64,000 nucleotides of DNA, taken from the NCBI GenBank assembly GCA_017610205.1, contig JAFCCL010000004.1, positions 58,220 through 122,219 of the forward strand. Reading direction: 5' to 3'. The stretch comes from Candidatus Iainarchaeum sp. (GTDB taxonomy: Archaea; Iainarchaeota; Iainarchaeia; Iainarchaeales; GCA-2688035). The notes under the pieces are model-generated. The model had not been told where the DNA came from. It did not search any database and worked only from the letters and a program-made list of their open reading frames with translations. The position numbers and the translations under genes were made by a program. This document shows, piece after piece, positions 30,720-64,000 of the stretch (its first letter is position 1; the number at the start of each line of letters is the position of its first letter).

Positions 30720-30768
30720 TTAGATAAAAAAAGGGGGAAAATTATTTTAAGGGAATTGAACAGCCTGC

Positions 30769-30909
30769 TGTATTATCGAGCATCCGAAGGATGTGAAGAT
30801 GGTACTCGCGCCAGCCCCGCGTGTGGGTTGCCGGGCGTGACGGCTTAGTTGAGATTGTGTCATTGAGTTCAAACGAAAATGGCACCCGCACCAGCCGGGC
30901 GTGACGGCT
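30769..30909 (+). repeat. Structured repeat locus A (two full units plus one partial unit)
   Basis: GC-rich. Units are GTRTYATY-GA-stem-GAA-RATGGYAC, a 7-nt linker, then AGCCS-N7-SGGYT. Homologous to 38625-38816 and 41401-41465. Confidence 0.88.
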
Positions 30910-34211: not shown

Positions 34212-34708
34212 ATAAAAAAGGCCAGGGTATTGCAATAGACTTCCTTTTTGCAGTTATGATATTCCTACTTGTACTCAATGCAAGCCTTACATTGATTGAC
34301 AGCAACAATTCAACAGCCATGGACAAAAACCTCATAGGCGAACTTCAAGCCACTACAAGCCAATCAGTTGACGCACTTGTAAGAACAGAGGGTTCGCCAA
34401 AAGACTGGCAAAACAGAAGTATTGACGAAGCAGTCATAATCGGACTGGCAAAAAGTGACAGGGTTCTTGACAACGACAAGGTTAATACATTTATTACATG
34501 GTCAAAAACTTACAGCAGTAGTGATTACAACATGGTAAAAACATTATTATTAAGTGGTTACGACTTTCATTTCAAGATAGGCGGACTTGAAGCCCCAGAA
34601 GCAAAGCCGCCTATTTGGAACGATATGACAGCAGTAAGAATAAAAAGAATTGTAAATTTTAACGGAGAGGAAGCAATTGCAGAATTCACAATATACTACC
34701 CACAATAA
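34208..34708 (+). CDS. Minor pilin C1
   Basis: KKG|QGIAIDF, G.P.DW and GLA..DRVLD..KV. Paralog of 40770-41354. Confidence 0.85.
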   Translation: MNKKGQGIAIDFLFAVMIFLLVLNASLTLIDSNNSTAMDKNLIGELQATTSQSVDALVRTEGSPKDWQNRSIDEAVIIGLAKSDRVLDNDKVNTFITWSKTYSSSDYNMVKTLLLSGYDFHFKIGGLEAPEAKPPIWNDMTAVRIKRIVNFNGEEAIAEFTIYYPQ

Positions 34709-37700
34709 AAAAGGAATGGCAATATCCATTGACGCATTGCTTGCGCTGATAATATTTGTAGCAATGGTTGCATTCATTTCAACAGACCCTGCAAGCAACC
34801 TAACAACAATACAACCAACGCTTGCAACAAATCAATTGATTGACGACGCAATTGCTGCAATGGATAGAACAGGATTTATAATGGAGTGCATTGAAAATGG
34901 TGAATTTGAGGAAATGGAAACAAAACTTGAAGCCATGCTGCCAGAAATCATGGACTACAATATTGAAATTATAAGATATGAGTCACCGCTGGACAAGGCT
35001 CCGGACAAGCCTTGCAGAGACATTGATTTAGGCCAAGATTTTGAAACATGCTTTCCATACGACACAAATGTTTACAGCATAGGAAGTGAACGGCCAACAG
35101 ACAAAGACATTTTTCACGGGCAAAAAATATTCATAAAAAAAGAATCAGGCGACTGCAGCATTGTATCCGGTTTTGAAGAAAAGAAAAAATGGCTGGAATT
35201 AATATTTGCAGGGGATAACCTACCAGAAGCAAGGGATGTAAACATTACAACAGCAGGCTCATGCCCTGGAAAAAGAAACCCCTGCCCTGCAATAGAAGAA
35301 GGGCAGATGAGATGCTGCTATACATATTACGATGAAGATATCCCACAAAACCCAGAGACTGGTGTTGAATACAAATGGTATATGTATGATGAGGACACAG
35401 ATTTGTGGGAACCGACAGGCGCAGATTTGCCAACACTTGATTTTGACGAAACTGACGACGCAAAAAGGTTCAAATGCTCTGTAAGAGTAAGAGATGGTCC
35501 AAACCCGTGGGATTGGGGAGCTGACACCAACAGCCCTCTTGCAATAATAGGCGGGCCATGCTTTGTATTTGAATCAGAAGTAACACAGGGAGAAGAACAA
35601 GTAACAGAATACAAGTGCGGAGAAACATACGACATAGATTTCAGCATTTCCGGAAGCTCAGGTGAAAGGATGGAACCTGTTGACATAATGCTTTCCTTGG
35701 ACAGAAGCGGAAGCATGAGCTGGCTTGGATTCAATGATGACACAACCGAACTTGCAAAAAGCATTTTTATTGACTCAAGCGGAGCAAGTGATATTGCATA
35801 CTTTGGAACAAACAACCAGGTATACAAATTTGGAATAAATAACCAAACAGGAGACCTTACAACACTTACAAATACAAGTTCAATAGACGACGCACAAGGG
35901 CTCTTTGTTGATGACAGCTATGTATATGTTGCCGATGATGAAAGAGGGCTTACAATACTGGACAAAGACGACTTAAGCATTGTAAGAATAATGGGTAATG
36001 ACAGCGGGAAAGAGATTACAACAGCAAAAAGCGTCTTTGTTGAAGGAGATTACATTTACCTTGCAGCAGCAGGAACCTACATACCCGGAACTGAAAAAAA
36101 ATATGACGCTGAAATGTACGCGGAAAGAAATCAGGAAGATATAAACATAGGCTATAGCTCAACAGGAAGCTGGGCAGCACAATCGTTTATACCAAATGTG
36201 CATGACATAAACGGAATAGAACTTGAGGTAAAAAAAATTGCCGGGAGAATTAATCCTGGAAACCTGACAGTTCACATTAGGCAAACACAAACAGGAACTG
36301 ACCTGACAAACGGAACAGTGGAAATTGCAGCAGGGGATATTCCAACAAACTGGGATGAATGGATTACAGCCAATTTTAATCCTTCAGTAAGCGTAACGCC
36401 TGAGCAAACCTATTACATTGCACTTACCACAACAACAGAAGGCATAGGGCCTTACTATAAATGGGGAAGCAGGCTAATCAATCCAGACCCATACAGCGAA
36501 GGAGCACTCTATGCATGCACCTCAGGCGGAATCTGCACAGAGCAATGGATTGAAGGCGAAGGATGGGAGCCTAACGAGTATGAAGACGCAAGATTCAGGA
36601 CTTTTTACTATTCTTCAATTGTAGGAGGATTAATAATAATAGACAAAAGCGACCCAGACCCAAATAATTGGAATATTTTAAGCAATATGTATAACACAGG
36701 AATCGGATTAATAGACAGACCTCAGGATGTTGTTGTCTCAGGAAATTATGCATATTTAACAGACAGAAGCGGCGGAGACGGTACACAAGGCCTTTGGATA
36801 ATTGACATAACAGACAAGTTAAGCCCTTCAATGAAAGGATTTGTAGAAGCAAGCAACCCGAATTCAGTGGAAGTTTCAGGAAACTATGCATATGTAACAG
36901 ACGGCGGAAACGGAGTAATGGTAATTGATGTAACAAACAAGTCAAACCCTTTGATTGCTCCACCAATAACCGGACTTGGCACAGTTGACGACATTGCCCT
37001 ATATGGAACAAAAATATATGTAAATGCAAATACCCCTGAAGGAGGGGCAAAAAATTACGGAGTGCATGTTATTGACATAACAACTCCTGCAGACCCTGTG
37101 CTGCAGCAAACATTTTACACACAATTTGTAATTGCAGGAGAAAATGAATATGCATTGGATGTAAGCCCTAACTGGATGGCATTGGCAAATGAATATGACC
37201 CAGACTTCTTTGAGAATTATAGTGCAATGACATTAAGCAGACAGTTTGGCAACAAAATGAACATTGCAAAGGAGTCCTCAAAAGAATTTGTCATGTTTGA
37301 AGATTGGAAGTCACCGGAAGACCAAATAGGAATCGTCAGCTACGGAGGCAGCCCTGATGTTAACTTAAACAGCGAATTGAATGAAGCAAGTACTGAAAAC
37401 AAGATAGAATTAAACGGCAAGATAGACTTTATAGAGGCATATATGGGAACTCCTATGACAAGCGGCTTGCAGACAGCAGTAGACGAGCTAAAGCTTCCGC
37501 CAACAGGAAATGGAAGCGAGGATGCAATGCAGTTTATAGTTTTGCTGGCAGATGGACAAAACGACGAAGGCGGCTTGAACGTGGCATACGATGATGCCAG
37601 AGCCAATGAGATATATATTTTCACAATAGGATTTGGAGGAGACGTTGACACAACGCAGTTGGAAAACATTTCAAAATGTGCTTACTGCCCTGATAATACT

Positions 37701-38603
37701 GATACTGAAGCAGACTGCACTGACTTTGTGCTTACAGAAAGCTCGGATTGCGGCAGCTATCACCATATAAGCGACCCGGAAGCATTAAGTGAAGTATACC
37801 AGGTTATTGCACAGAGAATTGCTGAACTTTCAGGAAAGCTTCCTGACGGTGCAACAACAGACATAGCTCTTGAGTTCAACAGATTTGGAAACGGAATGAA
37901 GATAACAGATTACACACCGGTTGAAACAGGCAACTGGGATTCTGACAACAACATTCTGAACTTTGAAAATATCGACATAAGATTTGGGTGGGAAGGCAGT
38001 TTTGAAGCAACAATAGCATGCGATTATGTAGGATGCGGCGAAGAATTTGTTGAAGGAAGCAGTATAAGCTTTCCTCCGAAAGACACTATGATTTCATACT
38101 CGCTTGACGGAATTGAACAGGACCCGATTCTATGGCCTTACAAGTTTGAAGTTGAAAAAGAAGTATATTACAATGACCTTGGCATTGAATTTGATGAAGG
38201 AAAATTTATTCCTCCAAGTGATGCATGGGTAAAATACAATGTTTTAAATGAAGGATACAAAAGCATTGACCTTGGCGACATAATTCCGACAGTAAACTTT
38301 TACAACGGAGAAACTTCTGAAACCGCATGTATTGGCAATCCTGAGAGCAGAGTTGGCGAACAACAGATTGACAAAATTGTTGAAGCAGCTTATGGCACAG
38401 ATTTCGTAAGCGAAGACAGAACAAGTGAAACAGGAGAAACAAACCTAAGTGGAAGCGGATATATTTGCCTCTGGGTAAATCAAACGCGTGGCGATGGAGA
38501 ACAGGATGTTGTTGAATGTGCCGAAAACAATCAGGCTATAATAAACTGTGACATTCCTGAAACATATATATACACCATGGATTACTGGGCGTGGCAAAAA
38601 TGA
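34677..38603 (+). CDS. Pilin-like vWA adhesin D1 with LVIVD-repeat payload
   Basis: KKG|MAISIDALL, MIDAS DRSGS, LVIVD repeats (V.VSGNYAYV.D...G..VIDV), remainder of vWA (IGIVSY, IVLLADG, IFTIGFG) and C-terminal DYWAWQK. Confidence 0.88.
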   Translation: MQNSQYTTHNKKGMAISIDALLALIIFVAMVAFISTDPASNLTTIQPTLATNQLIDDAIAAMDRTGFIMECIENGEFEEMETKLEAMLPEIMDYNIEIIRYESPLDKAPDKPCRDIDLGQDFETCFPYDTNVYSIGSERPTDKDIFHGQKIFIKKESGDCSIVSGFEEKKKWLELIFAGDNLPEARDVNITTAGSCPGKRNPCPAIEEGQMRCCYTYYDEDIPQNPETGVEYKWYMYDEDTDLWEPTGADLPTLDFDETDDAKRFKCSVRVRDGPNPWDWGADTNSPLAIIGGPCFVFESEVTQGEEQVTEYKCGETYDIDFSISGSSGERMEPVDIMLSLDRSGSMSWLGFNDDTTELAKSIFIDSSGASDIAYFGTNNQVYKFGINNQTGDLTTLTNTSSIDDAQGLFVDDSYVYVADDERGLTILDKDDLSIVRIMGNDSGKEITTAKSVFVEGDYIYLAAAGTYIPGTEKKYDAEMYAERNQEDINIGYSSTGSWAAQSFIPNVHDINGIELEVKKIAGRINPGNLTVHIRQTQTGTDLTNGTVEIAAGDIPTNWDEWITANFNPSVSVTPEQTYYIALTTTTEGIGPYYKWGSRLINPDPYSEGALYACTSGGICTEQWIEGEGWEPNEYEDARFRTFYYSSIVGGLIIIDKSDPDPNNWNILSNMYNTGIGLIDRPQDVVVSGNYAYLTDRSGGDGTQGLWIIDITDKLSPSMKGFVEASNPNSVEVSGNYAYVTDGGNGVMVIDVTNKSNPLIAPPITGLGTVDDIALYGTKIYVNANTPEGGAKNYGVHVIDITTPADPVLQQTFYTQFVIAGENEYALDVSPNWMALANEYDPDFFENYSAMTLSRQFGNKMNIAKESSKEFVMFEDWKSPEDQIGIVSYGGSPDVNLNSELNEASTENKIELNGKIDFIEAYMGTPMTSGLQTAVDELKLPPTGNGSEDAMQFIVLLADGQNDEGGLNVAYDDARANEIYIFTIGFGGDVDTTQLENISKCAYCPDNTDTEADCTDFVLTESSDCGSYHHISDPEALSEVYQVIAQRIAELSGKLPDGATTDIALEFNRFGNGMKITDYTPVETGNWDSDNNILNFENIDIRFGWEGSFEATIACDYVGCGEEFVEGSSISFPPKDTMISYSLDGIEQDPILWPYKFEVEKEVYYNDLGIEFDEGKFIPPSDAWVKYNVLNEGYKSIDLGDIIPTVNFYNGETSETACIGNPESRVGEQQIDKIVEAAYGTDFVSEDRTSETGETNLSGSGYICLWVNQTRGDGEQDVVECAENNQAIINCDIPETYIYTMDYWAWQK

Positions 38604-38837
38604 AATTACAAACACAAGCAAGCCTGTGTCATCGAGCCAAAGCGAATTGTGTCATCAAGTCCAAACGAAAATGGCACCCAGACCAGGCGAGTTGTGTCAT
38701 CAAGTCCAAACGAAAATGGGACTCTGACCAGCCGGCAGTGGCGGCTCTCGCACCAACTAGGCCGTGTCATCAAGTCCAAACGAAAATGGCACCCGCACCA
38801 GCCGGGCGTAACGGCTACTGGGCGTGGCAAAAATGAA
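38583..38837 (+). mobile_element. Structured-repeat concatemer (locus B) between 22-bp direct repeats
   Basis: TACTGGGCGTGGCAAAAATGAA at 38583-38604 and 38816-38837 (233 bp apart), enclosing four full or truncated units. Confidence 0.85.
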
Positions 38838-39819
38838 CCAACGAGGAATTTTCATAACATTCATGGTATTTTTGCTTGTCGGAAGCGTTATTGCATTGCA
38901 TGATACTACAAAAAAAACAGATTTAAGGCAGGAAAAAAAATATATTGAGGAAGCAGCCTTTAACAATATAAACAATGCTTTCAACAACGTTTACGAAGAA
39001 GTTATTTCACTAAACAAGGAGGGGAACGCAAGAATTATACAGATTCGGTCACTTCCTTTTTCATACGACTTTAACAAAAATTCAATTATTCTAAGCCAAC
39101 AGATTCCAATAAGATTAAGCGTACTTGACGCATATATTGATACATTAAACGTTTACCGCATTTTTACCGGAAGTGGACTTACAACAGACCTTAACATTGT
39201 TACAGGAACACTTCAAAACACAGCATGGGATGGAGGAGAAGACTATCCAGACTTCAATTATGCAATTCTGCCACAATGCCTTTTGTACGACGTAAACGCA
39301 GACAGCACAATGGTTTTAAGGGAACTTGAAGCAGGGCAGTTTGGATGCGAAAAAGGATTCAATTACACAGACCTTAACATAATTGATATAAACATTTCAA
39401 TTGACTCAAGTCTGTGTACAGCAGGATCTCATCTTGGGACATTGGAACTAACAGGTTTGTCTAAACCTTACCCAGAGTATAGAATAACAGTAAATGAAAC
39501 AAACCCAAGTTATCCAATAACAGGAGGAGGCAAGCTTGAATACTATGGCCACTTTGACCCGGAAAGTTATGGCCCTGGAGAAGACTGGTTTACAATAAAA
39601 TGTAATACAGGCGGCAGTGAAGAACCATGGCTTAGAGTAAAACTTGGAATGGAAAGTGCAAACGACCCGTTTCCATTTGTTGCAAAAAACTTTATTCCTG
39701 CACAGCCAGTGGATATTGATTTAAATATGGTATTTGATACAAAAGTGGACCTGTTTTACTTTACAGGGTTTTCCATAAGCGTTAATAAGGTAAACTTTCC
39801 AATAAAAAGGACTACATAA
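38833..39819 (+). CDS. Pilin-like protein E1
   Basis: NQRG|IFITFMVFLL and LQNTAWDGGEDYP..Y.I.PQCL. Paralog of 46457-47482. Confidence 0.82.
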   Translation: MNQRGIFITFMVFLLVGSVIALHDTTKKTDLRQEKKYIEEAAFNNINNAFNNVYEEVISLNKEGNARIIQIRSLPFSYDFNKNSIILSQQIPIRLSVLDAYIDTLNVYRIFTGSGLTTDLNIVTGTLQNTAWDGGEDYPDFNYAILPQCLLYDVNADSTMVLRELEAGQFGCEKGFNYTDLNIIDINISIDSSLCTAGSHLGTLELTGLSKPYPEYRITVNETNPSYPITGGGKLEYYGHFDPESYGPGEDWFTIKCNTGGSEEPWLRVKLGMESANDPFPFVAKNFIPAQPVDIDLNMVFDTKVDLFYFTGFSISVNKVNFPIKRTT

Positions 39820-39842
39820 AAGGAAAAAAAGGAGGAAATTAA

Positions 39843-40361
39843 ATGGCTGGAAAAAAGGCACAAATTGCAATGGAATACCTTATTCTAACAGGCTTTATTC
39901 TTGTAGCAGTGGCATTGATTTTTGGATTTTCATTCATAAACTATAATCAAAACATCAGAATTGCAAAAACAAGCGAAGCCATTTCAAAGCTTTCAAACGC
40001 AGTTGATGACATTTATACAAGAGGCGAAGGAAACACCAGGTTTGTAAAAATATCATGGCCTGACGGAATGAAAAACATTAGCATAGTGTACAAATGCCTT
40101 AATGGAACCCAACAAGACAATGCAGAAGGCTGTGGTGACAGCGAATATGGCGATGTAGAATTCAGCGTAATTTCCATGGAAGTGCAATTACTTGGAGAGG
40201 ACGTAATTGTGATGGAGAGAACCAAGGCAAAAATAAAAGAAAAACTTGACGGCATGGACGACATGGACATACATGGAAACTTTAACCAGTACTCTGGAAG
40301 CACGTACATTGTAAAAGTAAGCTGGACTAGCTCAGGGCTAATACAACTTGAGAGGGTATAA
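39843..40361 (+). CDS. Minor pilin A2
   Basis: KKA|QIAMEYLILTGFIL. Confidence 0.88.
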   Translation: MAGKKAQIAMEYLILTGFILVAVALIFGFSFINYNQNIRIAKTSEAISKLSNAVDDIYTRGEGNTRFVKISWPDGMKNISIVYKCLNGTQQDNAEGCGDSEYGDVEFSVISMEVQLLGEDVIVMERTKAKIKEKLDGMDDMDIHGNFNQYSGSTYIVKVSWTSSGLIQLERV

Positions 40362-40363
40362 AA

Positions 40364-40768
40364 ATGCAAAATAAAGGCCAGGTTTCAATCGAAGTAATGT
40401 TAATTGTCATAATTCTCCTTGGATTATTGCTTGCAACCTCGTACATAATGATGCAAAGAAGCAATGATATAAACAGGCTTGCGACAATTCAAAGAGACAC
40501 ACAAAAATGCGACAATATTGCTTCAGCAATAGTAAGTTTGAGTTCAAACACAGGCTATAGCGAAATGATTGTAACAGGATTTGAAAAGGATGTAAGAATT
40601 GAAAAAGGAAGCGTTATTGTTGGAAATGTTGGATGCAGCTACAAAGGAGATGTGTGGTTTGGTAATAAAAGTGCTGAAAATGAAGACATTTGGCTGCTTA
40701 AGAATCAAACATATTTTATAAAAAAAATAGGTGAAAAAGTGAAGTTTGAATTAGTTGAGGAGGAATAA
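40364..40768 (+). CDS. Minor pilin B2
   Basis: NKG|QVSIE, with C..IAS.I and VG.V.CSY.G shared with B1. Confidence 0.85.
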   Translation: MQNKGQVSIEVMLIVIILLGLLLATSYIMMQRSNDINRLATIQRDTQKCDNIASAIVSLSSNTGYSEMIVTGFEKDVRIEKGSVIVGNVGCSYKGDVWFGNKSAENEDIWLLKNQTYFIKKIGEKVKFELVEEE

Positions 40769-40769
40769 C

Positions 40770-41354
40770 TTGAACAAAAAAGGTCAAGGAATAGCAATTG
40801 ACCTTATGGCAGGTGTTCTGATATTCATAATTATAGGCTCAAGTATTATGTTTGTGTGGGGAGACAAATCGTTTGAAGTGGAAGAAAACCTTTTTGAAAA
40901 TGAAAGAATTGCAATGGCTGAAAGGACTCTTGACACAATAGTAATAAGCAAGGGCCTGCCAACAGATTGGGAAAAATACATTGGAACAGAAGAGGAGATT
41001 GCCAACAACATTAAAATGCTTGGACTTGCAAGAAGAGACAGGGTTCTTGACAAAAAAAAGGTTGAAAAATTTGCAGAATTAAGCAATTTTGAAGATAATT
41101 ACGCAATTCTGAAAACAAAACTATTAATTGGAGGAAACGAGTACTATTTTAGGATTTTGGATCCGAAAAGGGAAAATGTTGACGAACAAATAATCAGCGC
41201 AGGAGAAAGTCCAACAGGCAATGTAGTAGAAATCAGAATCGAAAGAGCGGTGATATACAGCTATCACAGAGACGGAGTAGATGAAGGAGATACAAACAGT
41301 CAGCATGAAGCAATAGCTGAACTGATATTATACTCATCATACTGGAGGAGATAA
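40770..41354 (+). CDS. Minor pilin C2
   Basis: KKG|QGIAIDL. TTG start after SD GAGGAGG. Confidence 0.85.
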   Translation: MNKKGQGIAIDLMAGVLIFIIIGSSIMFVWGDKSFEVEENLFENERIAMAERTLDTIVISKGLPTDWEKYIGTEEEIANNIKMLGLARRDRVLDKKKVEKFAELSNFEDNYAILKTKLLIGGNEYYFRILDPKRENVDEQIISAGESPTGNVVEIRIERAVIYSYHRDGVDEGDTNSQHEAIAELILYSSYWRR

Positions 41355-41357
41355 GGA

Positions 41358-44300
41358 ATGAAAAAGAAATGTTTTGCAAAGCAAACTTCCAAAAACCAGA
41401 AGATTGTGTCATCGAGCAACCAAAGGTTGCGAAGATGGCACTCTGACCAGCCGGCAGGGGCGGCTAAAGGATTTGCTATTGCGGTTGATGCATTACTTGC
41501 AACAGTGCTTACAATAACAGTGCTTACAGTTATAGGCTTTGGAATGCAATCAAACGAAGACATAATAACGTCATCAGAAATAAGAATAAAACAAACTGTT
41601 GACGACACATTCACCGCCCTTAACAACAGTGGAACTATTGCAAAATATCTGGCAGACCCACAACTAACCCAGACTAGCATTTTTAATCCAGACGACCCAG
41701 AAAATCCAGGAATCTACACAGAAGCACAACAGCTTCTGCCGAAAAACATTGGCTTGAAAGTAAAAGTAAGCGAGTACTTGGCAGCTGAAGGCACGGATTT
41801 AGACACCTGCAAAGCAACCAAAAATTTTTCCGACTGCTTTGGCGTACCAACAGGCACTCCATTTGAAGAAGTAGAATGGCCTCTAGAAAGCCTGCCAAAC
41901 AATGAAATTGTACACGGCAGAAAAATTGCAATAACGAAAGAAATATCAACAGGCGAAACTGCAGAAGGAAAAGAATGTGTTCCTGTTGAAAATCTGGAGC
42001 TTAAAGAGTCAATAAAAGAAAAAGTAAACGCTGTGTTTTTAGAAGGCGAAACAGGTATTGAAACATGGATTGAAATAACCGACACAGATGACACGCCAAT
42101 AGACGAACTCTCCTGCGACCAAATTGCAAAAGTTACCATAAGGGCAAGAAACCAAGCCAGAGACCCTGTTGCAATAGTGCTTGCAATGGACGAAAGCGGA
42201 AGCATGAGCACATACGATGCACTAACCCAAGAAGCAACAGGAACATTCAATGCAGGAACATGCAACGACGAACCAGTTTGGGTTGGAGGAAGATTTGAAA
42301 ATGGGTTGGAATTCAACGGCATAACAAACTATGTTAACTGCGGAAACGACTCAGCATTCAATATCCTGGGACAGCTTACAATTGCAGCATGGATAAAGAT
42401 AGATAATGTTGACGAAGACAAATGGATGGTGATTATCAAAAAAAAATATGCCTATTACACTGAAGAAAAAGGCTACGAAATGCTGTACAACCCAGGCCTT
42501 AATGAAGTAAGGCTTGTTGGAGGCGGAGGCGCCTATGCAAAAGCCATAGGCGTTGACCTTGACACAGGATGGCATTTTATAGTAGGAACCATAGACAACG
42601 AAACAGGCGAAATTTACGTTGACACAATAAAAAAGACTACCTGGTATATAATTAGCAGCCTTAAAAGTGGCGCAGACCCAGTAGAAATAGGAAACAGGGA
42701 ACGAAGTCTGAGCAATGGAGACAGGTTCGGCGGAATAATAGACGAAATAAGGCTGTATAATAGGGTACTTACTTCTGAAGAAATAAACGGGCTTTTCGCA
42801 AGCAACACAGAGGTTGGAGATGCAGCAACATCCTTGGTTGCACACTGGGCATTTAATGAAACAGAAAATTTGATTGCAGCAGACAGCAGCGGAAACGGCA
42901 GAAATTGCTCCCTTCAAAACTGGTCCCACTATTATCCAGAAGGAGCAACAGAGTGCATATGGGAAGCAGGGCAAGCAGCAAATCCAGTTACAAACTGCCC
43001 TGCAACAAAATGCGATTACGCAGAATTCACAGACGAGGAAATTGCATTAACCTACGAGATTACACCAAGCTTTTTTGAGAAGATTGTTCCACCATACGAC
43101 AGCCTGAGTTTTTTAGGAGATAGTACATTATACGAAGGAATTTGTACAGACCCTGCAGAGATGAGATTGTGGATAGAAAGGCCTGATGGAGAAGTAGAAT
43201 GTGAAAGTTCAGGAGATGGCGAAACAATAAATAATAGCCAAATTGAAACCGGCGTATACAAAATAAACGTCTGGAGCGATGCACCAGTCGACTACGATAT
43301 CAGGCTTGTACAAAATCTAAAGCGATATGTATATGATAGGCCTTTTGGGGGCGGAGGACATTCAGGCAGTTATAATCCAGGAGAAAGTGAGTGTACAGAC
43401 TTTACAGGATGGGATGAGTTAACAAGCTTTGACTTTTCAGATTACAACAGCCTTCGCTATGTATACTTCAGAATCTTATACGACGCATATACTTCAATTG
43501 GAGGGGCATGTGGAACGCCAAGGTTTAGAGTAAGCTATGAAAGCAATGGCAGTGAATGGATACCTGCAAAATTTGGCAACGGCATGGATTTCAAACACAA
43601 ACAAACATGGGCTAATAATGATAATGCAAACTATATAGAACTTCCAAGCGGTGTAAACCCTGGTATAACAGACAGTTTTAGCTTTTCAACATGGTTTAAG
43701 GGAGGAGAAAGAGTAATTTATGACTACTATCCAACAATGTTCAATTGGGAAAATGACGCAGGAGACAGCAAGCTCTGGATTGGAATACCTAGCAGGAATG
43801 AGGATACTGTTGGCGTTGAACTTAACGGCTTTTTATACTTTTTTAGCGGAGATACATACTTGTATGACATGGCATGGCATCATTTGGTTTTTACCTACGA
43901 TAAGCCAAGCAAAACACTCACAGCATACATAGACGGAGAAGTTTACGCCACCCCAAAATCAGGATTTGTTGACCGAAGCTTTGACTTCACCAACAGCAGT
44001 GCATGGATTGGAACCAACAGAGAAGCCACCGAAGGCTACTTATATCGATCATGGTTTGGCGGGCTTGATGAAGTAAGGCTTTACAACAAAGCACTTACCA
44101 CCGAAGAAATAAGCGAACTTTTCACAAGCAATACAGCTGGAGGTGCAACCACCTCATTGGTTGCACACTGGGCACTAAATGAAAGCACTGGCTACAGTGT
44201 AGCAGACTCCTCAGGAAATGGAAACAATGGAACAGCAGTCCTTGACCAGGAATGGATTATAGGCCCTTGTGGAACAGGTGATTTCAGCGGTTGCGTTCCA

Positions 44301-46460
44301 GGAATAAATACCTGGAGTGGTGCTTACGGACCATTTCTAAGGCAAGGGACTTACAAAGTTGAGGGATGGAGTGATACAGTTACTGATACATCAGCAGATG
44401 TTGAATTATACAGAGGATACCAAGAATGGGGCTATATTTACGGAGACTGGACTAAATCCGAACTTATTGACGGAGGCACATGCAGCAATACGACATGCCA
44501 GTATCAAACAACACCTTCAACAACAGCAAATACAAACTGTCCAATTACAAGCAACGTAAACCCTTATTTCTACAATTATTCAAGGCTCCCAGGGGCAACA
44601 GGCACGCAAACAATTGACACATACAATGTTTCTATAAACCACTACGGATTGCAGGCAGAAGTTACCTTTGACTACACAAATTACACAGACGCAGTATGCC
44701 AAGGAGCAGGAATGGGATTGCAAAACGCTTTTGAAACAGACCCAAACTGGCATTATCCAACCCCGGTGAAAGGAAGCAGTCTAACAAAAACATTTTATAT
44801 AAACGACGGGCCAAGCACACCTTCAGGGCAAGAATATTACAACCATGCTGACGGGCCGCCAATAACAAAAGGAGACTATGACATTTTAGGATGGGCAGAA
44901 GAGGATGTAAGCTACGACATTAAATGGATTCTTCAAAGAATTGATGGAGCAAAAAAGGCAGCAACCAACTTTATGAATAATGCTAGCTGGCAGGCAGATG
45001 ACGAAATAGGCCTTGTTTCTTTTTCAAACACAGCAGAAATAGACCAAGAGCTTACAATAGACAAGGATGCAGTAAAAAATGCAATAGAAGCTCTTGTTCC
45101 AAGTGATGAAACAGGAATAGCCAACGCAATAAATAAATCGATAGAAGAATTAGAACTCAACGCAGAAGCAGGAGTAGCAAGGTTTGTTATATTGCTTACA
45201 GACGGACGGGCAAATGTTTGCAGTGACGGAAGCGTATGCGATGAGGCAGTGGCAATAGATGAGGCAATAGCAGCAGCCAATGACGCAAGAGACAATCATC
45301 AAACAATAATTTATGTTATTGGATTTGCAGAGCCGTCACTAATTGATGAAAACAGTATGAAACAAATTGCCAAGGACAAAGATGCCTTTCCTGAAGAATG
45401 TATAGATAGTGAAAGCAGGTGCGGCAAATATTACTATGCTGAAGATGCAAAAACCCTTGAAGAAATGTATACTTTGATTTCGTTTGAAATAGCAAGGGTT
45501 GTTGGAAACATTGACATAAAAATCCCCATCCCGGCAGGAATAGAACTAAGCAATTATGGCAGTGAAACAGAGAAAAAATGCGGACTTTGGAATGAGGCAG
45601 GAGAAGTTTTCTTGGATCCAGAAGTAGAGTGTTATGGAAAATGCAGCAGCGGGGAAAGCACATGTGTTAGTGGAGAAGAACTTATTTACAGCAATCAGGG
45701 AATAAGCTACTGGTGGCTGGCTGAATTTGATATGGTATCGCCATGCGATGCAGAAAATTGTGAAGAAAGCTATGTTCTCTTTCCTCCAATTGACACAGAA
45801 ATTATAGATAATGCTGACGAAAGCAGTGTCAGTTGGGATGGAAGCGAAATAGAAACTCTGGAATGTGGAGTAGGAGAAAACACTAAATGTCACAAAAGAA
45901 TAAAAATAAAGTATGCCGACCTTAATGTAGCCTTCACATATGGATTACTGAAAACAGGACCGCCGGAAACAGTAACAATTAATTTCGAAATAGGAAACGA
46001 CGGCTACACAAATATAGACCTACCTACAGTTATAGGAAATGGACTGGATGTCTGCTTTTATAAAAAAGAGATAATTCCGGGCAACGAGATATCAATAAAA
46101 TCTGCTTCATTACCTCTTGCAATCTTGGGAGAGAAAAGCAGTATTACTTTAGATAGAGAAATATCAAGCAACTGCCTAAAAATTTCCATTCCAGGCACAG
46201 CAGTAGTTGATGGAACCTGTTCCTGGAAAGAAGACCTATGCACAGTTCCATACGATGAAACATACTGGAAAATTAAAATAGATGACCTTGTTCTCAACGG
46301 CTGTCCAAATGATAATTGCACAGGAACAATAATCGCAGAAATAAATCAAAATCACTACAACAATGTTAGTGAATGCCAGCTACACAATCAGGGCAGGATT
46401 ATCTGCAGCGGAGAACGCCTAAGATTCTTTACCATAGACTATTATGCGTGGATAAAATGA
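41358..46460 (+). CDS. Pilin-like vWA adhesin D2 with two LamG domains in its payload
   Basis: KG|FAIAVDALL, MIDAS DESGS, two LamG domains, remainder of vWA (IGLVSF, VILLTDG, IYVIGF) and C-terminal DYYAWIK. Confidence 0.88.
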   Translation: MKKKCFAKQTSKNQKIVSSSNQRLRRWHSDQPAGAAKGFAIAVDALLATVLTITVLTVIGFGMQSNEDIITSSEIRIKQTVDDTFTALNNSGTIAKYLADPQLTQTSIFNPDDPENPGIYTEAQQLLPKNIGLKVKVSEYLAAEGTDLDTCKATKNFSDCFGVPTGTPFEEVEWPLESLPNNEIVHGRKIAITKEISTGETAEGKECVPVENLELKESIKEKVNAVFLEGETGIETWIEITDTDDTPIDELSCDQIAKVTIRARNQARDPVAIVLAMDESGSMSTYDALTQEATGTFNAGTCNDEPVWVGGRFENGLEFNGITNYVNCGNDSAFNILGQLTIAAWIKIDNVDEDKWMVIIKKKYAYYTEEKGYEMLYNPGLNEVRLVGGGGAYAKAIGVDLDTGWHFIVGTIDNETGEIYVDTIKKTTWYIISSLKSGADPVEIGNRERSLSNGDRFGGIIDEIRLYNRVLTSEEINGLFASNTEVGDAATSLVAHWAFNETENLIAADSSGNGRNCSLQNWSHYYPEGATECIWEAGQAANPVTNCPATKCDYAEFTDEEIALTYEITPSFFEKIVPPYDSLSFLGDSTLYEGICTDPAEMRLWIERPDGEVECESSGDGETINNSQIETGVYKINVWSDAPVDYDIRLVQNLKRYVYDRPFGGGGHSGSYNPGESECTDFTGWDELTSFDFSDYNSLRYVYFRILYDAYTSIGGACGTPRFRVSYESNGSEWIPAKFGNGMDFKHKQTWANNDNANYIELPSGVNPGITDSFSFSTWFKGGERVIYDYYPTMFNWENDAGDSKLWIGIPSRNEDTVGVELNGFLYFFSGDTYLYDMAWHHLVFTYDKPSKTLTAYIDGEVYATPKSGFVDRSFDFTNSSAWIGTNREATEGYLYRSWFGGLDEVRLYNKALTTEEISELFTSNTAGGATTSLVAHWALNESTGYSVADSSGNGNNGTAVLDQEWIIGPCGTGDFSGCVPGINTWSGAYGPFLRQGTYKVEGWSDTVTDTSADVELYRGYQEWGYIYGDWTKSELIDGGTCSNTTCQYQTTPSTTANTNCPITSNVNPYFYNYSRLPGATGTQTIDTYNVSINHYGLQAEVTFDYTNYTDAVCQGAGMGLQNAFETDPNWHYPTPVKGSSLTKTFYINDGPSTPSGQEYYNHADGPPITKGDYDILGWAEEDVSYDIKWILQRIDGAKKAATNFMNNASWQADDEIGLVSFSNTAEIDQELTIDKDAVKNAIEALVPSDETGIANAINKSIEELELNAEAGVARFVILLTDGRANVCSDGSVCDEAVAIDEAIAAANDARDNHQTIIYVIGFAEPSLIDENSMKQIAKDKDAFPEECIDSESRCGKYYYAEDAKTLEEMYTLISFEIARVVGNIDIKIPIPAGIELSNYGSETEKKCGLWNEAGEVFLDPEVECYGKCSSGESTCVSGEELIYSNQGISYWWLAEFDMVSPCDAENCEESYVLFPPIDTEIIDNADESSVSWDGSEIETLECGVGENTKCHKRIKIKYADLNVAFTYGLLKTGPPETVTINFEIGNDGYTNIDLPTVIGNGLDVCFYKKEIIPGNEISIKSASLPLAILGEKSSITLDREISSNCLKISIPGTAVVDGTCSWKEDLCTVPYDETYWKIKIDDLVLNGCPNDNCTGTIIAEINQNHYNNVSECQLHNQGRIICSGERLRFFTIDYYAWIK
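41401..41465 (+). repeat. Structured repeat locus C, a single unit in frame within the adhesin signal peptide
   Basis: AGATT-GTGTCATC-GA-GCAACC-AAA-GGTTGC-GAA-GATGGCAC-TCTGACC-AGCCG-GCAGGGG-CGGCT. Confidence 0.88.
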
Positions 46461-63619: not shown

Positions 63620-64000
63620 GTGAACTACCTGCCCGTGAAGGGGCAGGGGTCCGCGGGTCCAAATCAGTTACAGTTTAACAGTGTTGTTTGTGCTTGAACT
63701 GGTTTGTTTGCTGTCCAGTGTTTTTTCTGGCTTTCGTTGACGTATTTTTTCATGGTTTCTGCTGTTACTGCTCCGACTGTTTTGTGGAAGTATCCGTCGC
63801 TCCACATGCTGTCACCATACAGGCCTTTAACTGTTAGTCTGACGGGAAGTTTTTGTCTTATGACTCTTGCACTTGCACCCTTGAATCTTTGAGCGAGTTC
63901 TGCTATGCTGTAATTTTTCCAGTCTGCAACAAATATGTGAGCATTGTCTGGTCCCAACCCCATGCCAACAAGTTGCACATGGAGCCTTGCAGCAATCTCT
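63620..64000 (-). mobile_element. IS200-type element (right part)
   Basis: The tnpA 3' end is followed by the hairpin CTGCCC-CTTCAC-GGGCAG and terminal TAGTTCA(C). Confidence 0.8.
63664..64000 (-). CDS. tnpA: IS200/IS605 Y1 HUH transposase (partial, start beyond right edge)
   Basis: FKGASAR, WSDGYF..TVG and KKYV..SQ (catalytic Tyr). The HUH position reads PDNAHIF. Frame is open to the window end. Confidence 0.9.
   Translation of the reverse strand, partial: EIAARLHVQLVGMGLGPDNAHIFVADWKNYSIAELAQRFKGASARVIRQKLPVRLTVKGLYGDSMWSDGYFHKTVGAVTAETMKKYVNESQKKHWTANKPVQAQTTLLNCN

Follow-up and report, generated by a model that had tools for sequence, protein, structure and literature searches.

A family of small structured mobile elements with long target-site duplications in Iainarchaeum-like archaea

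The DNA analysed here is a window of 64,000 nucleotides (nt) from Candidatus Iainarchaeum sp. (GenBank assembly GCA_017610205.1, contig JAFCCL010000004.1, positions 58,220 to 122,219), and our subject is a 211-nt insert, locus B, that lies at the junction of the genes D1 and E1 between two copies of a 22-nt direct repeat. Comparison with other genomes of the genus confirms that, unless the assembly is wrong, both the insertion and the duplication of its target are real. The insert is composed of units from a family that is well supported as a new, structured mobile element, and this family is found only in Iainarchaeum-like DPANN archaea. We interpret locus B as a recent insertion of a composite member of this non-autonomous family, made by target-primed and probably RNA-mediated copy-in, and assign this interpretation a probability of roughly 0.45.

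An insertion at the D1/E1 junction

The source genome (G000; 1.37 Mb in 24 contigs, 92% complete) carries locus B inside a 122-kb contig. The 22-mer TACTGGGCGTGGCAAAAATGAA forms a perfect direct repeat with 211 nt between its copies (Table 1) and occurs exactly twice in the whole genome, and a flanking repeat of equal length was found at none of 200 random genome positions. The stop codon of D1 (TGA, 38601-38603) lies in the left copy and the start codon of E1 (ATG, 38833) in the right one, so that each copy keeps one gene end and both genes are intact. These results bear out the initial annotation, which had described a duplicated 22-mer containing the ATGA overlap of the two genes and had named the paralogous D2/E2 junction as the uninterrupted state; that junction is uninterrupted, as claimed.

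The status of the junction was examined in the six other genomes of the genus by using positions 37900-39500 as a DNA query. The two flanks of the query align to adjacent stretches that overlap by 22-23 nt in four genomes (G004, G006, G001, and G003), and in these and in G005 the junction reads GA(T/C)TACTGG..AAA(A/G)TGAA.. unbroken, with one copy of the 22-mer each. The search for an empty allele that had been suggested at the outset thus yields an uninterrupted junction in five of the six congeners (G001 and G003-G006), which indicates that the duplication was made on insertion. The sixth genome, G002 (C83, L050), has 17 extra nt at this junction, bounded by an AAATGAA repeat and with no element between, which may be the remnant or footprint of a lost insertion. 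A second site provides the reverse comparison, being empty in the source genome (G000:C16:75219-75263) and filled in G004 (L111, with a 46-nt duplication) and G006 (L137, with a 55-nt duplication).

The interior of the insert is also made up as first described, from a leader, two 3'-truncated units, a linker, and two full units of different pseudoknot type (Table 1). Comparison by eye with full-length copies suggests that the C/A-rich leader is a degenerate or decayed 5' module (GCGAGC-N4-GCGAGC-C) with G-to-A changes. A piece similar to the linker, CCAGCTAGGGC, precedes the unit at G000:C1:57280. The three hairpins of the locus (38649, 38694, and 38764) share one identical 26-mer, absent from the rest of the genome, and bear different stem-1 types (CAG, CTG, and CGC, respectively). 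The partial-plus-full layout of units 1-3 recurs at G000:C16:89296-89395, and the family often forms tandem arrays (locus A, L105, L111, L133, and C22).

Table 1. Positions of the features discussed, numbered from the first letter of the window
Feature	Positions	Strand	Remarks
D1	34677..38603	+	1308-aa surface-type protein with LVIVD repeats and VWA domain; intact
Left copy of target-site duplication	38583..38604	+	Last D1 codons and TGA stop; single copy at the orthologous site in 5 congeners
Insert, composite of family units, 211 nt	38605..38815	+	Missing from the orthologous junction in G001, G003, G004, G005, and G006
C/A-rich leader ATTACAAACACAAGCAAGCC, 20 nt	38605..38624	+	
Partial unit 1, 23 nt	38625..38647	+	5' strand of stem and GA motif, without 3' strand or tail
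Partial unit 2, 45 nt	38648..38692	+	Complete hairpin; tail cut after CACCCAGACCAG
Full unit 3	38693..38746	+	Hairpin and pseudoknot tail; stem-1 CTG/CAG; GGCT end
Linker CTCGCACCAACTAGGCC, 17 nt	38747..38763	+	Resembles the start of a second (CGC-type) tail
Full unit 4	38764..38816	+	Hairpin and pseudoknot tail; stem-1 CGC/GCG; final T is the first base of the right duplication copy
Right copy of target-site duplication	38816..38837	+	17 nt upstream of the E1 start, and ATG
E1	38833..39819	+	Hydrophobic N-terminus like a class III signal; intact; start conserved among congeners
D2/E2 stop/start overlap (ATGA)	46457..46460	+	Paralogue; uninterrupted
Locus A, two tandem family units	30765..30909	+	Antisense to both neighbouring genes
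Locus C, one unit	41405..41465	+	In frame and without stop within the 5' end of D2, ahead of the KGFAIAVDALLA class III signal

Structure, distribution, and duplications of the family

A unit of the family consists of an optional 5' GA-motif hairpin (GCGAGC-N4-GCGAGC), at least one variable GA-capped hairpin, and a 3' H-type pseudoknot that ends in GGCT. The minimal unit is 53 nt long, and its 8-bp stem (GTGTCATC/GATGGCAC) includes a T-G wobble and bears a GA-motif cap (GAG-CCCAAG-CGAA), followed by 3-4 nt and then by the tail CYCGCA-CCAGCCGGGCGTGACGGCT. Longer copies carry the GCGAGC-N4-GCGAGC sequence as a separate small 5' hairpin, together with other or additional hairpins of quite different sequence. 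Copies truncated at the 5' side keep the exact 3' end and include 16-nt GCCGGGCGTGACGGCT pieces as well as 25- and 30-nt tails. No inverted pairs were detected in 38300-39100, and the ends of the unit (GTGTCATC and GACGGCT) are not complementary. A search of the window against Rfam returned no match at the gathering score and only chance-level matches at E up to 10.

In the tail pseudoknot, stem 2 is formed by AGCCG/CGGCT, and stem 1 by the pairing of three upstream bases with a triplet in the stem-2 loop. The stem-1 triplets of 96 tails, drawn from 13 genomes, include CGC/GCG (43), CTG/CAG (16), CGT/ACG (12), CAG/CTG (9), and TGC/GCG (3), and all three pairs are formed in 83 tails. The two variable pairs of stem 1 are GC 47, AU 11, and UA 11 in one case and CG 43, GC 20, and UA 8 in the other, and changes on both sides fill 52 cells where 13 are expected. 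This covariation was reached by none of 500 shuffles and is destroyed by sliding the partner by 1-3 columns. Because the 5' strand of stem 1 lies outside the search pattern, these counts carry no ascertainment effect, whereas stem 2 belongs to the pattern and is hardly informative. Its first pair does change from A-U to U-A or U-G in copies with the subfamily tail CGTA-CCTGCCGGACGTGACGGC(A/G), and to C-G in further copies. Strong covariation of this kind indicates that the pseudoknot is real. The plus strand of the element folds and its main hairpin keeps the T-G wobble, while the complement folds worse than shuffled sequence, which together mark the folded strand as the sense strand.

The tail pattern, with at most one mismatch, is present in 14 of 41 genomes (the source genome and 40 relatives), and the reversed pattern used as a control gave no match in any of them. 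The element is present in all seven genomes of the genus and, beyond it, in further genera of the family and in two more families of the order. With a looser pattern, for which the control gives 0-3 matches per genome, G037 holds 35 copies, the source genome 24, and G006 23, and the next richest genomes hold 17, 15, 14, and 13. When prokaryotes were scanned with one genome for each species, 41 contigs contained the exact tail. The G+C content was measured for 15 of these, and the 10 below 50% are 'Candidatus Iainarchaeum' or archaeon metagenome-assembled genomes or mislabelled bins, the bins labelled Chloroflexi or Thaumarchaeota being the same genomes as G002-G004. Most of the other exact-tail matches carry high-GC bacterial names (two were measured, at 62% and 67% G+C) and are read as chance. 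Complete elements are present in all 13 metagenome contigs recovered (35-53% GC); two matches to viral contigs are also attributed to chance, the contigs having 60-70% GC and no hairpin. A search of the literature, supplementary files excluded, found no description of such an element.

Flanking duplications were sought at 89 copies by aligning the 28-35 nt after GGCT with the 250-280 nt upstream, with 100 shuffles per copy. A direct repeat starting 0-2 nt after GGCT was found at 13 copies, and in each of these cases the score was reached by none of the 100 shuffles. Their refined lengths (the second figures in Table 2) run from 20 to 55 nt, with 8 of the 13 at 20-23 nt, so that duplications do occur at copies other than locus B, as the initial annotation had expected if its interpretation held. 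A further 18-nt duplication was found in a metagenome contig. The 5' junction is ragged, with 0-34 nt of unrelated filler between the left repeat and the first recognisable base of the element. In G037, none of nine sampled copies has a duplication, and the copies of this genome may be old.

Table 2. The 13 copies flanked by a direct repeat
Copy	Genome	Identical positions	Target
Locus B	G000	22/22	D1/E1 junction
C16	G000	21/22	tRNA-Ala 3' end
C17	G000	17/21	tRNA-Leu 3' end
L043	G006	22/22	tRNA 3' end
L127	G002	22/23	tRNA 3' end
L112	G004	19/20	tRNA 3' end
L128	G002	20/20	Gene junction
L143	G006	20/20	Gene junction
L121	G001	29/29	Not classified
L035	G033	31/33	Not classified
L129	G002	29/33	tRNA 3'-end-like fragment (our reading)
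L111	G004	41/46	Gene junction
L137	G006	48/55	Gene junction

Target sites and the mode of insertion

Transfer RNA genes are touched by 27 of 114 copies. The 3' end of the element lies 0-2 nt from the 3' end of a convergent tRNA in 10 of these 114, the element stands 0-3 nt upstream of the 5' end of a same-strand tRNA in 9, it follows a tRNA in 6, and it lies in a tRNA intron in 2, although ARAGORN may have called a few introns falsely. Four duplications of tRNA ends in the same orientation run from T54 of the T-loop to 0-4 nt past the discriminator, and one inverted duplication (G000:C16, tRNA-Ala) runs from G53 to 2 nt past the 3' end. The CGTA-CCTGCCGGACGTGACGGC(A/G) subfamily illustrates the range of these positions. 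Its unit directly adjoins base 1 of the intron-bearing tRNA-Tyr in the source genome (C24:5068-5285, L157), makes up the 3' end of that tRNA's 216-nt intron in G031 (C37, L173), where it abuts the 3' exon, and in near-identical form lies directly before tRNA-Asp in G015 (C9, L174). One copy in G006 is also inside a tRNA intron. The link to tRNA genes is too tight to be explained by survival alone. Template jumping onto mature tRNA 3' ends was considered and rejected, since CCA is absent from every tRNA-element junction.

An unusual arrangement is present at G000:C16:89150-89660 (L149), where two 98-nt units stand in tandem between two tRNA-Ala(GGC) genes. Each unit consists of a variant element ending in AGCCTTTTTCTAAAAGGCT and a 22-nt copy of the tRNA 3' end, and the locus also holds a standard unit in the opposite orientation. 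It looks like the product of repeated insertion into the same 22-nt target.

Duplications at gene junctions begin near the ribosome-binding site of the downstream gene and extend a few nt beyond the stop codon of the upstream one, so that both genes stay whole. Members of at least three different subfamilies occupy the junction between TP_methylase and DUF357 genes in G002, G006, and two metagenome contigs, with boundaries that agree within 2-4 nt. At the same junction the source genome (C10:10523-10560) has two target-like copies about 20 nt apart with no element between them, which may be the footprint of a lost insertion. This site, struck at least three times, is not obviously a highly expressed pair of genes, and we discarded the idea that hot spots are highly expressed operons. 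Where the duplication is about 20 nt long, selection by itself would narrow the surviving insertions at gene junctions to such positions, and targeting and survival are therefore not separable at these sites.

The 3' junction itself shows a preference. GGCT is followed by A in 54 of 123 copies and by T in 43, and 18 of the 123 meet a convergent open frame, 60 codons or longer, in whose TAG stop the AG is complementary to the element's terminal CT. In these 18 copies the flanking T and the opposite-strand AG of the element together make the stop codon of the convergent gene. A convergent stop lies at offset 3 in three copies and at offsets 1, 2, and 4-8 in none. Such microhomology would be left if a DNA end ...AG-3' acted as primer on a template ...CU-3', but selection for an immediate stop would also favour it.

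Taken together, the exact 3' end, the ragged 5' end, the 5'-truncated copies, the variable duplications, the 3' microhomology, the folded sense strand, and the lack of inverted repeats argue for copying that starts at the 3' end of the element, with a second cut that is loosely spaced. We hypothesize that a polymerase starts at the fixed 3' end of the element on a nicked strand of the target, and that a nick in the other strand, 20-55 nt away and presumably made second, would give rise to the flanking duplication. The template is probably RNA, as suggested by the identity of the folded strand with the sense strand and by the ragged 5' ends. At the D1/E1 junction the 22-nt stagger would have happened to span the D1 stop and the E1 start, so that both genes survived.

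Several observations weigh against target-primed copying from RNA. No RVT_1 reverse transcriptase gene was found in the source genome or in any of the 14 element-bearing genomes (binned sequence searched), whereas clear RVT_1 genes are present in G023, G024, G027, G028, and G034, where the element is not above control level. In the element-rich genome G037 (97% complete, two contigs), searches for a reverse transcriptase, a Y1 transposase, and the tRNA-linked integrase family were all negative. Searches of the source genome, the only one examined for these families, found neither Cas1 nor Prim-Pol. A clear duplication is lacking in 76 of the 89 copies, two of which have weak, ambiguous repeats, and at locus C there is no duplication and about 15 nt are replaced. 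If the 5' filler were transduced flank of the source copy it might be found elsewhere, but two fillers (from G006 and G033) that were sought genome-wide matched only themselves. A single-stranded DNA intermediate would fit the structural evidence equally well. The build of locus B is a further difficulty, in that the pieces upstream of each full unit lack 3' ends, which template jumps from 5' end to 3' end would leave intact; simple end-to-end jumping therefore does not explain the array. The composite may instead have been inherited from its source copy, or have arisen by local duplication, nested insertion, or gene conversion.

These results divide the mechanism put forward in the initial annotation. 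Its inference of insertion by a reverse transcriptase agrees with the duplication, the fixed 3' end, the variable 5' junction and duplication length, and the lack of inverted repeats, and stands in that part, but no such enzyme was found in any genome that bears the element, and the genome search it recommended gave no reverse transcriptase in the source genome. Template switching among different family members is not borne out: the upstream units are 3'-truncated, and the three hairpins are identical 26-mers. Its exclusion of an IS200/IS605 origin is upheld by the presence of duplications and by the lack of co-occurrence between Y1 transposase genes and the family.

Other candidate enzymes were considered and set aside. 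The single weak RVT_1 candidate of the source genome (E = 0.027) proves to be a membrane protein of TadC/FlaJ-like type. Of the 41 genomes, 15 have Y1_Tnp, and element-bearing G037, G033, and G001-G003 lack it; no TnpB gene adjoins an element in the source genome, where this was examined; and the tRNA-linked tyrosine integrase is missing from G037 and occurs in many genomes without the element. A search with PolB_2 for protein-primed PolB carries no weight, its control having had no match anywhere. The activity may lie in an unrecognised protein or a host polymerase, or may be supplied by a plasmid, virus, or host cell outside the bins.

The readings that compete with target-primed copying differ mainly in what they make of the two ends of the element. 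Transposition at the DNA level, in which a host or trans-acting nuclease or transposase recognises the folded 3' hairpin and pseudoknot as DNA, makes a long, loose stagger, and leaves the gap to repair fill-in, would suit a structure that could equally form in single-stranded DNA. It would also account for the lack of a reverse transcriptase gene, for targets struck repeatedly within 2-4 nt on either side, and for a cluster of duplications at 20-23 nt that could reflect a ruler. The same data nevertheless include duplications as long as 55 nt, no terminal inverted repeats, and filler-bearing 5' ends opposite an exact 3' end, and no tested enzyme tracks the element (Y1_Tnp and the integrase across genomes, Cas1 and Prim-Pol by their absence from the source genome), so that we regard this reading as rather doubtful. 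Passive capture, in which an abundant small structured RNA or its DNA serves as filler or switched template in break or fork repair without dedicated machinery, is unlikely on balance. The 3' junction is exact in every case and the same junctions are struck repeatedly, and the 13-35 copies in the richest genomes, with subfamilies that show compensatory changes, point to selection for a structure needed in spread. Even so, capture is consistent with the absence of a dedicated enzyme among the families searched, with the partial units inside locus B, which resemble templated-insertion repair, with the footprint-like remains in G002 at D1/E1 and in the source genome at C10, and with the many copies where tRNA processing would release RNA with the element's exact 3' end (the 9 of 114 at tRNA 5' ends and the 2 at the 3' ends of tRNA introns).

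Two further explanations have little to recommend them. A site-specific (tyrosine) integrase could have inserted a small circle on which the target sequence was already present, in the manner of elements that integrate into tRNA genes. Several duplications do correspond to the segment from T54 to the tRNA 3' end, a classic att core, and the source genome has three integrase genes next to tRNA genes. Near-identical elements are, however, flanked by unrelated duplications from gene junctions and different tRNAs, which means that the element cannot carry its target, and the distribution of the integrase family does not match that of the element (none in G037, many element-free genomes positive); we consider this route very improbable. 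Least probable of all is an artefact of metagenome assembly. The genome is in 24 contigs and the three identical 26-mers could lead to a mis-assembled number of units, but the insert lies inside a long contig, and insertions built alike, with duplications, are present in independent assemblies (G001, G002, G004, G006, G033, and metagenome contigs).

Target-primed copying can be extended into a broader and more tentative picture of a SINE-like (short interspersed nuclear element-like) archaeal mobile RNA, the first of its kind and without a recognisable reverse transcriptase gene. Cuts made in tRNA processing, by RNase P, the splicing endonuclease, and RNase Z, would define its ends, and it would insert at tRNA boundaries, introns, and operon junctions. 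If this is true, it offers a concrete route, open to testing, for the gain of leaders and introns by archaeal tRNA genes, and points to a so far unrecognised RNA-copying or nick-and-copy activity in DPANN archaea. Long, variable duplications combined with a fixed, structured 3' end in small non-autonomous elements are the retroposition signature of eukaryotes, and a similar signature in tiny DPANN genomes in which no reverse transcriptase gene was found suggests an unrecognised enzyme or an outside activity. The tight tie to tRNA gene ends and introns bears on how archaeal tRNA genes acquire introns. A compact genome tolerates such insertions because the long duplication rebuilds overlapping gene ends.

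Neighbouring loci and comparison with known systems

Locus B is one of three element loci that fall within an 11-kb stretch. At locus A, the TAG of the convergent gene lies 1 nt from the 3' end of the array, and an array of one to three units of different types stands at the same position in G004, G002, and G003. The unit at locus C is missing from the D2 orthologues of G004 and G002, and it lengthens the leader of the class III (pilin-like) signal of D2 (41358-46460) by 18 residues relative to G004. The region 34677-46460 comprises two paralogous cassettes, each with a giant surface protein (D1 with LVIVD and VWA, D2 with Laminin_G_3 and VWA), and small proteins with class III signal peptides lie between them. 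A TnpB (Cas12f1-like_TNB) gene and a fragment of an IS200/IS605-type Y1 transposase gene lie at the window ends (~2391-2588 and 63733-63999, both on the minus strand), and the source genome has 4 TnpB and 7 Y1 matches in total. Three tyrosine-integrase genes of 400-470 aa (C24:5356-6663, C18:40305-41390, and C3:179304-180242) lie just downstream of tRNA-Tyr, tRNA-Arg, and tRNA-Ser, respectively, and probably represent integrated elements.

Small interspersed repeats of prokaryotes include MITEs (miniature transposable elements with inverted repeats), repetitive extragenic palindromes and bacterial interspersed mosaic elements (REP/BIME), BOX and Correia elements, and Rickettsia palindromic elements, and the likeness to these is drawn from their general properties. 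The family shares with them its multi-copy, non-coding, structured, and modular nature and a frequent position at gene ends, and with the Rickettsia elements an in-frame copy inside a gene, here at locus C. Unlike MITEs, which derive from DDE transposons, it has no terminal inverted repeats and no matching transposase, and its duplications are variable and 20-55 nt long instead of short and fixed. Derivatives of IS200/IS605 make no target duplication. These palindrome-associated transposable elements (PATEs), like REP sequences mobilised by REP-associated tyrosine transposases (REP-RAYT), are hairpin-based and strand-specific, as is the family, and the source genome carries both TnpB and Y1 genes; the family nevertheless has duplications and does not co-occur with Y1 genes across genomes, and none of 23 tail-motif copies in the source genome lies within 18 kb of a TnpB or Y1 match.

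Integrative elements and casposons at tRNA 3' ends also show direct repeats of the tRNA 3' segment and a preference for gene 3' ends, but the duplications of the family vary by site, and inverted repeats, Cas1 (source genome), and a co-occurring integrase are all lacking. The mobile or 'transposed' introns of archaeal tRNAs share with the family the members in tRNA introns of G031 (the 3' end of the tRNA-Tyr intron) and G006, while most copies of the family lie outside introns. A 2012 paper proposes mobile-element integration as a cause of tRNA gene disruption (PMC3293823), and the route by which introns arrived in Asgard tRNAs is stated to be open in a 2026 preprint (10.64898/2026.10.13.758758).

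The tail of the element is similar in plan to a viral acceptor pseudoknot, with stems of 3 and 5 bp and short loops at the very 3' end, a likeness that we offer as a lead only. The tRNA-like structure of tymoviruses, of the turnip yellow mosaic virus type, has such an acceptor pseudoknot at its 3' end, and the enzyme of the Mauriceville retroplasmid starts at a 3' structure of this sort and makes hybrid cDNAs with tRNAs. In contrast to the viral structures, the family has no CCA, either encoded or at its junctions.

The closest parallel is with SINEs and related eukaryotic retroposons that spread by target-primed reverse transcription, and to our knowledge SINE-like elements have not been described in archaea; the literature that we searched gave none. 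The family differs from them in its archaeal host, in its longer duplications (20-55 nt), in having a pseudoknot at its 3' end in place of a poly(A) or simple-repeat tail, in not being tRNA-derived by ARAGORN or Rfam, and in the lack of a reverse transcriptase or partner element in any host genome searched. The features in common are small size, the absence of coding capacity, an exact 3' end with a variable 5' end and copies truncated on the 5' side, flanking duplications that vary in length, 3'-junction microhomology, and an affinity for tRNA genes. Although no reverse transcriptase was found in the host genomes, the element would, by this comparison, work most like a SINE.

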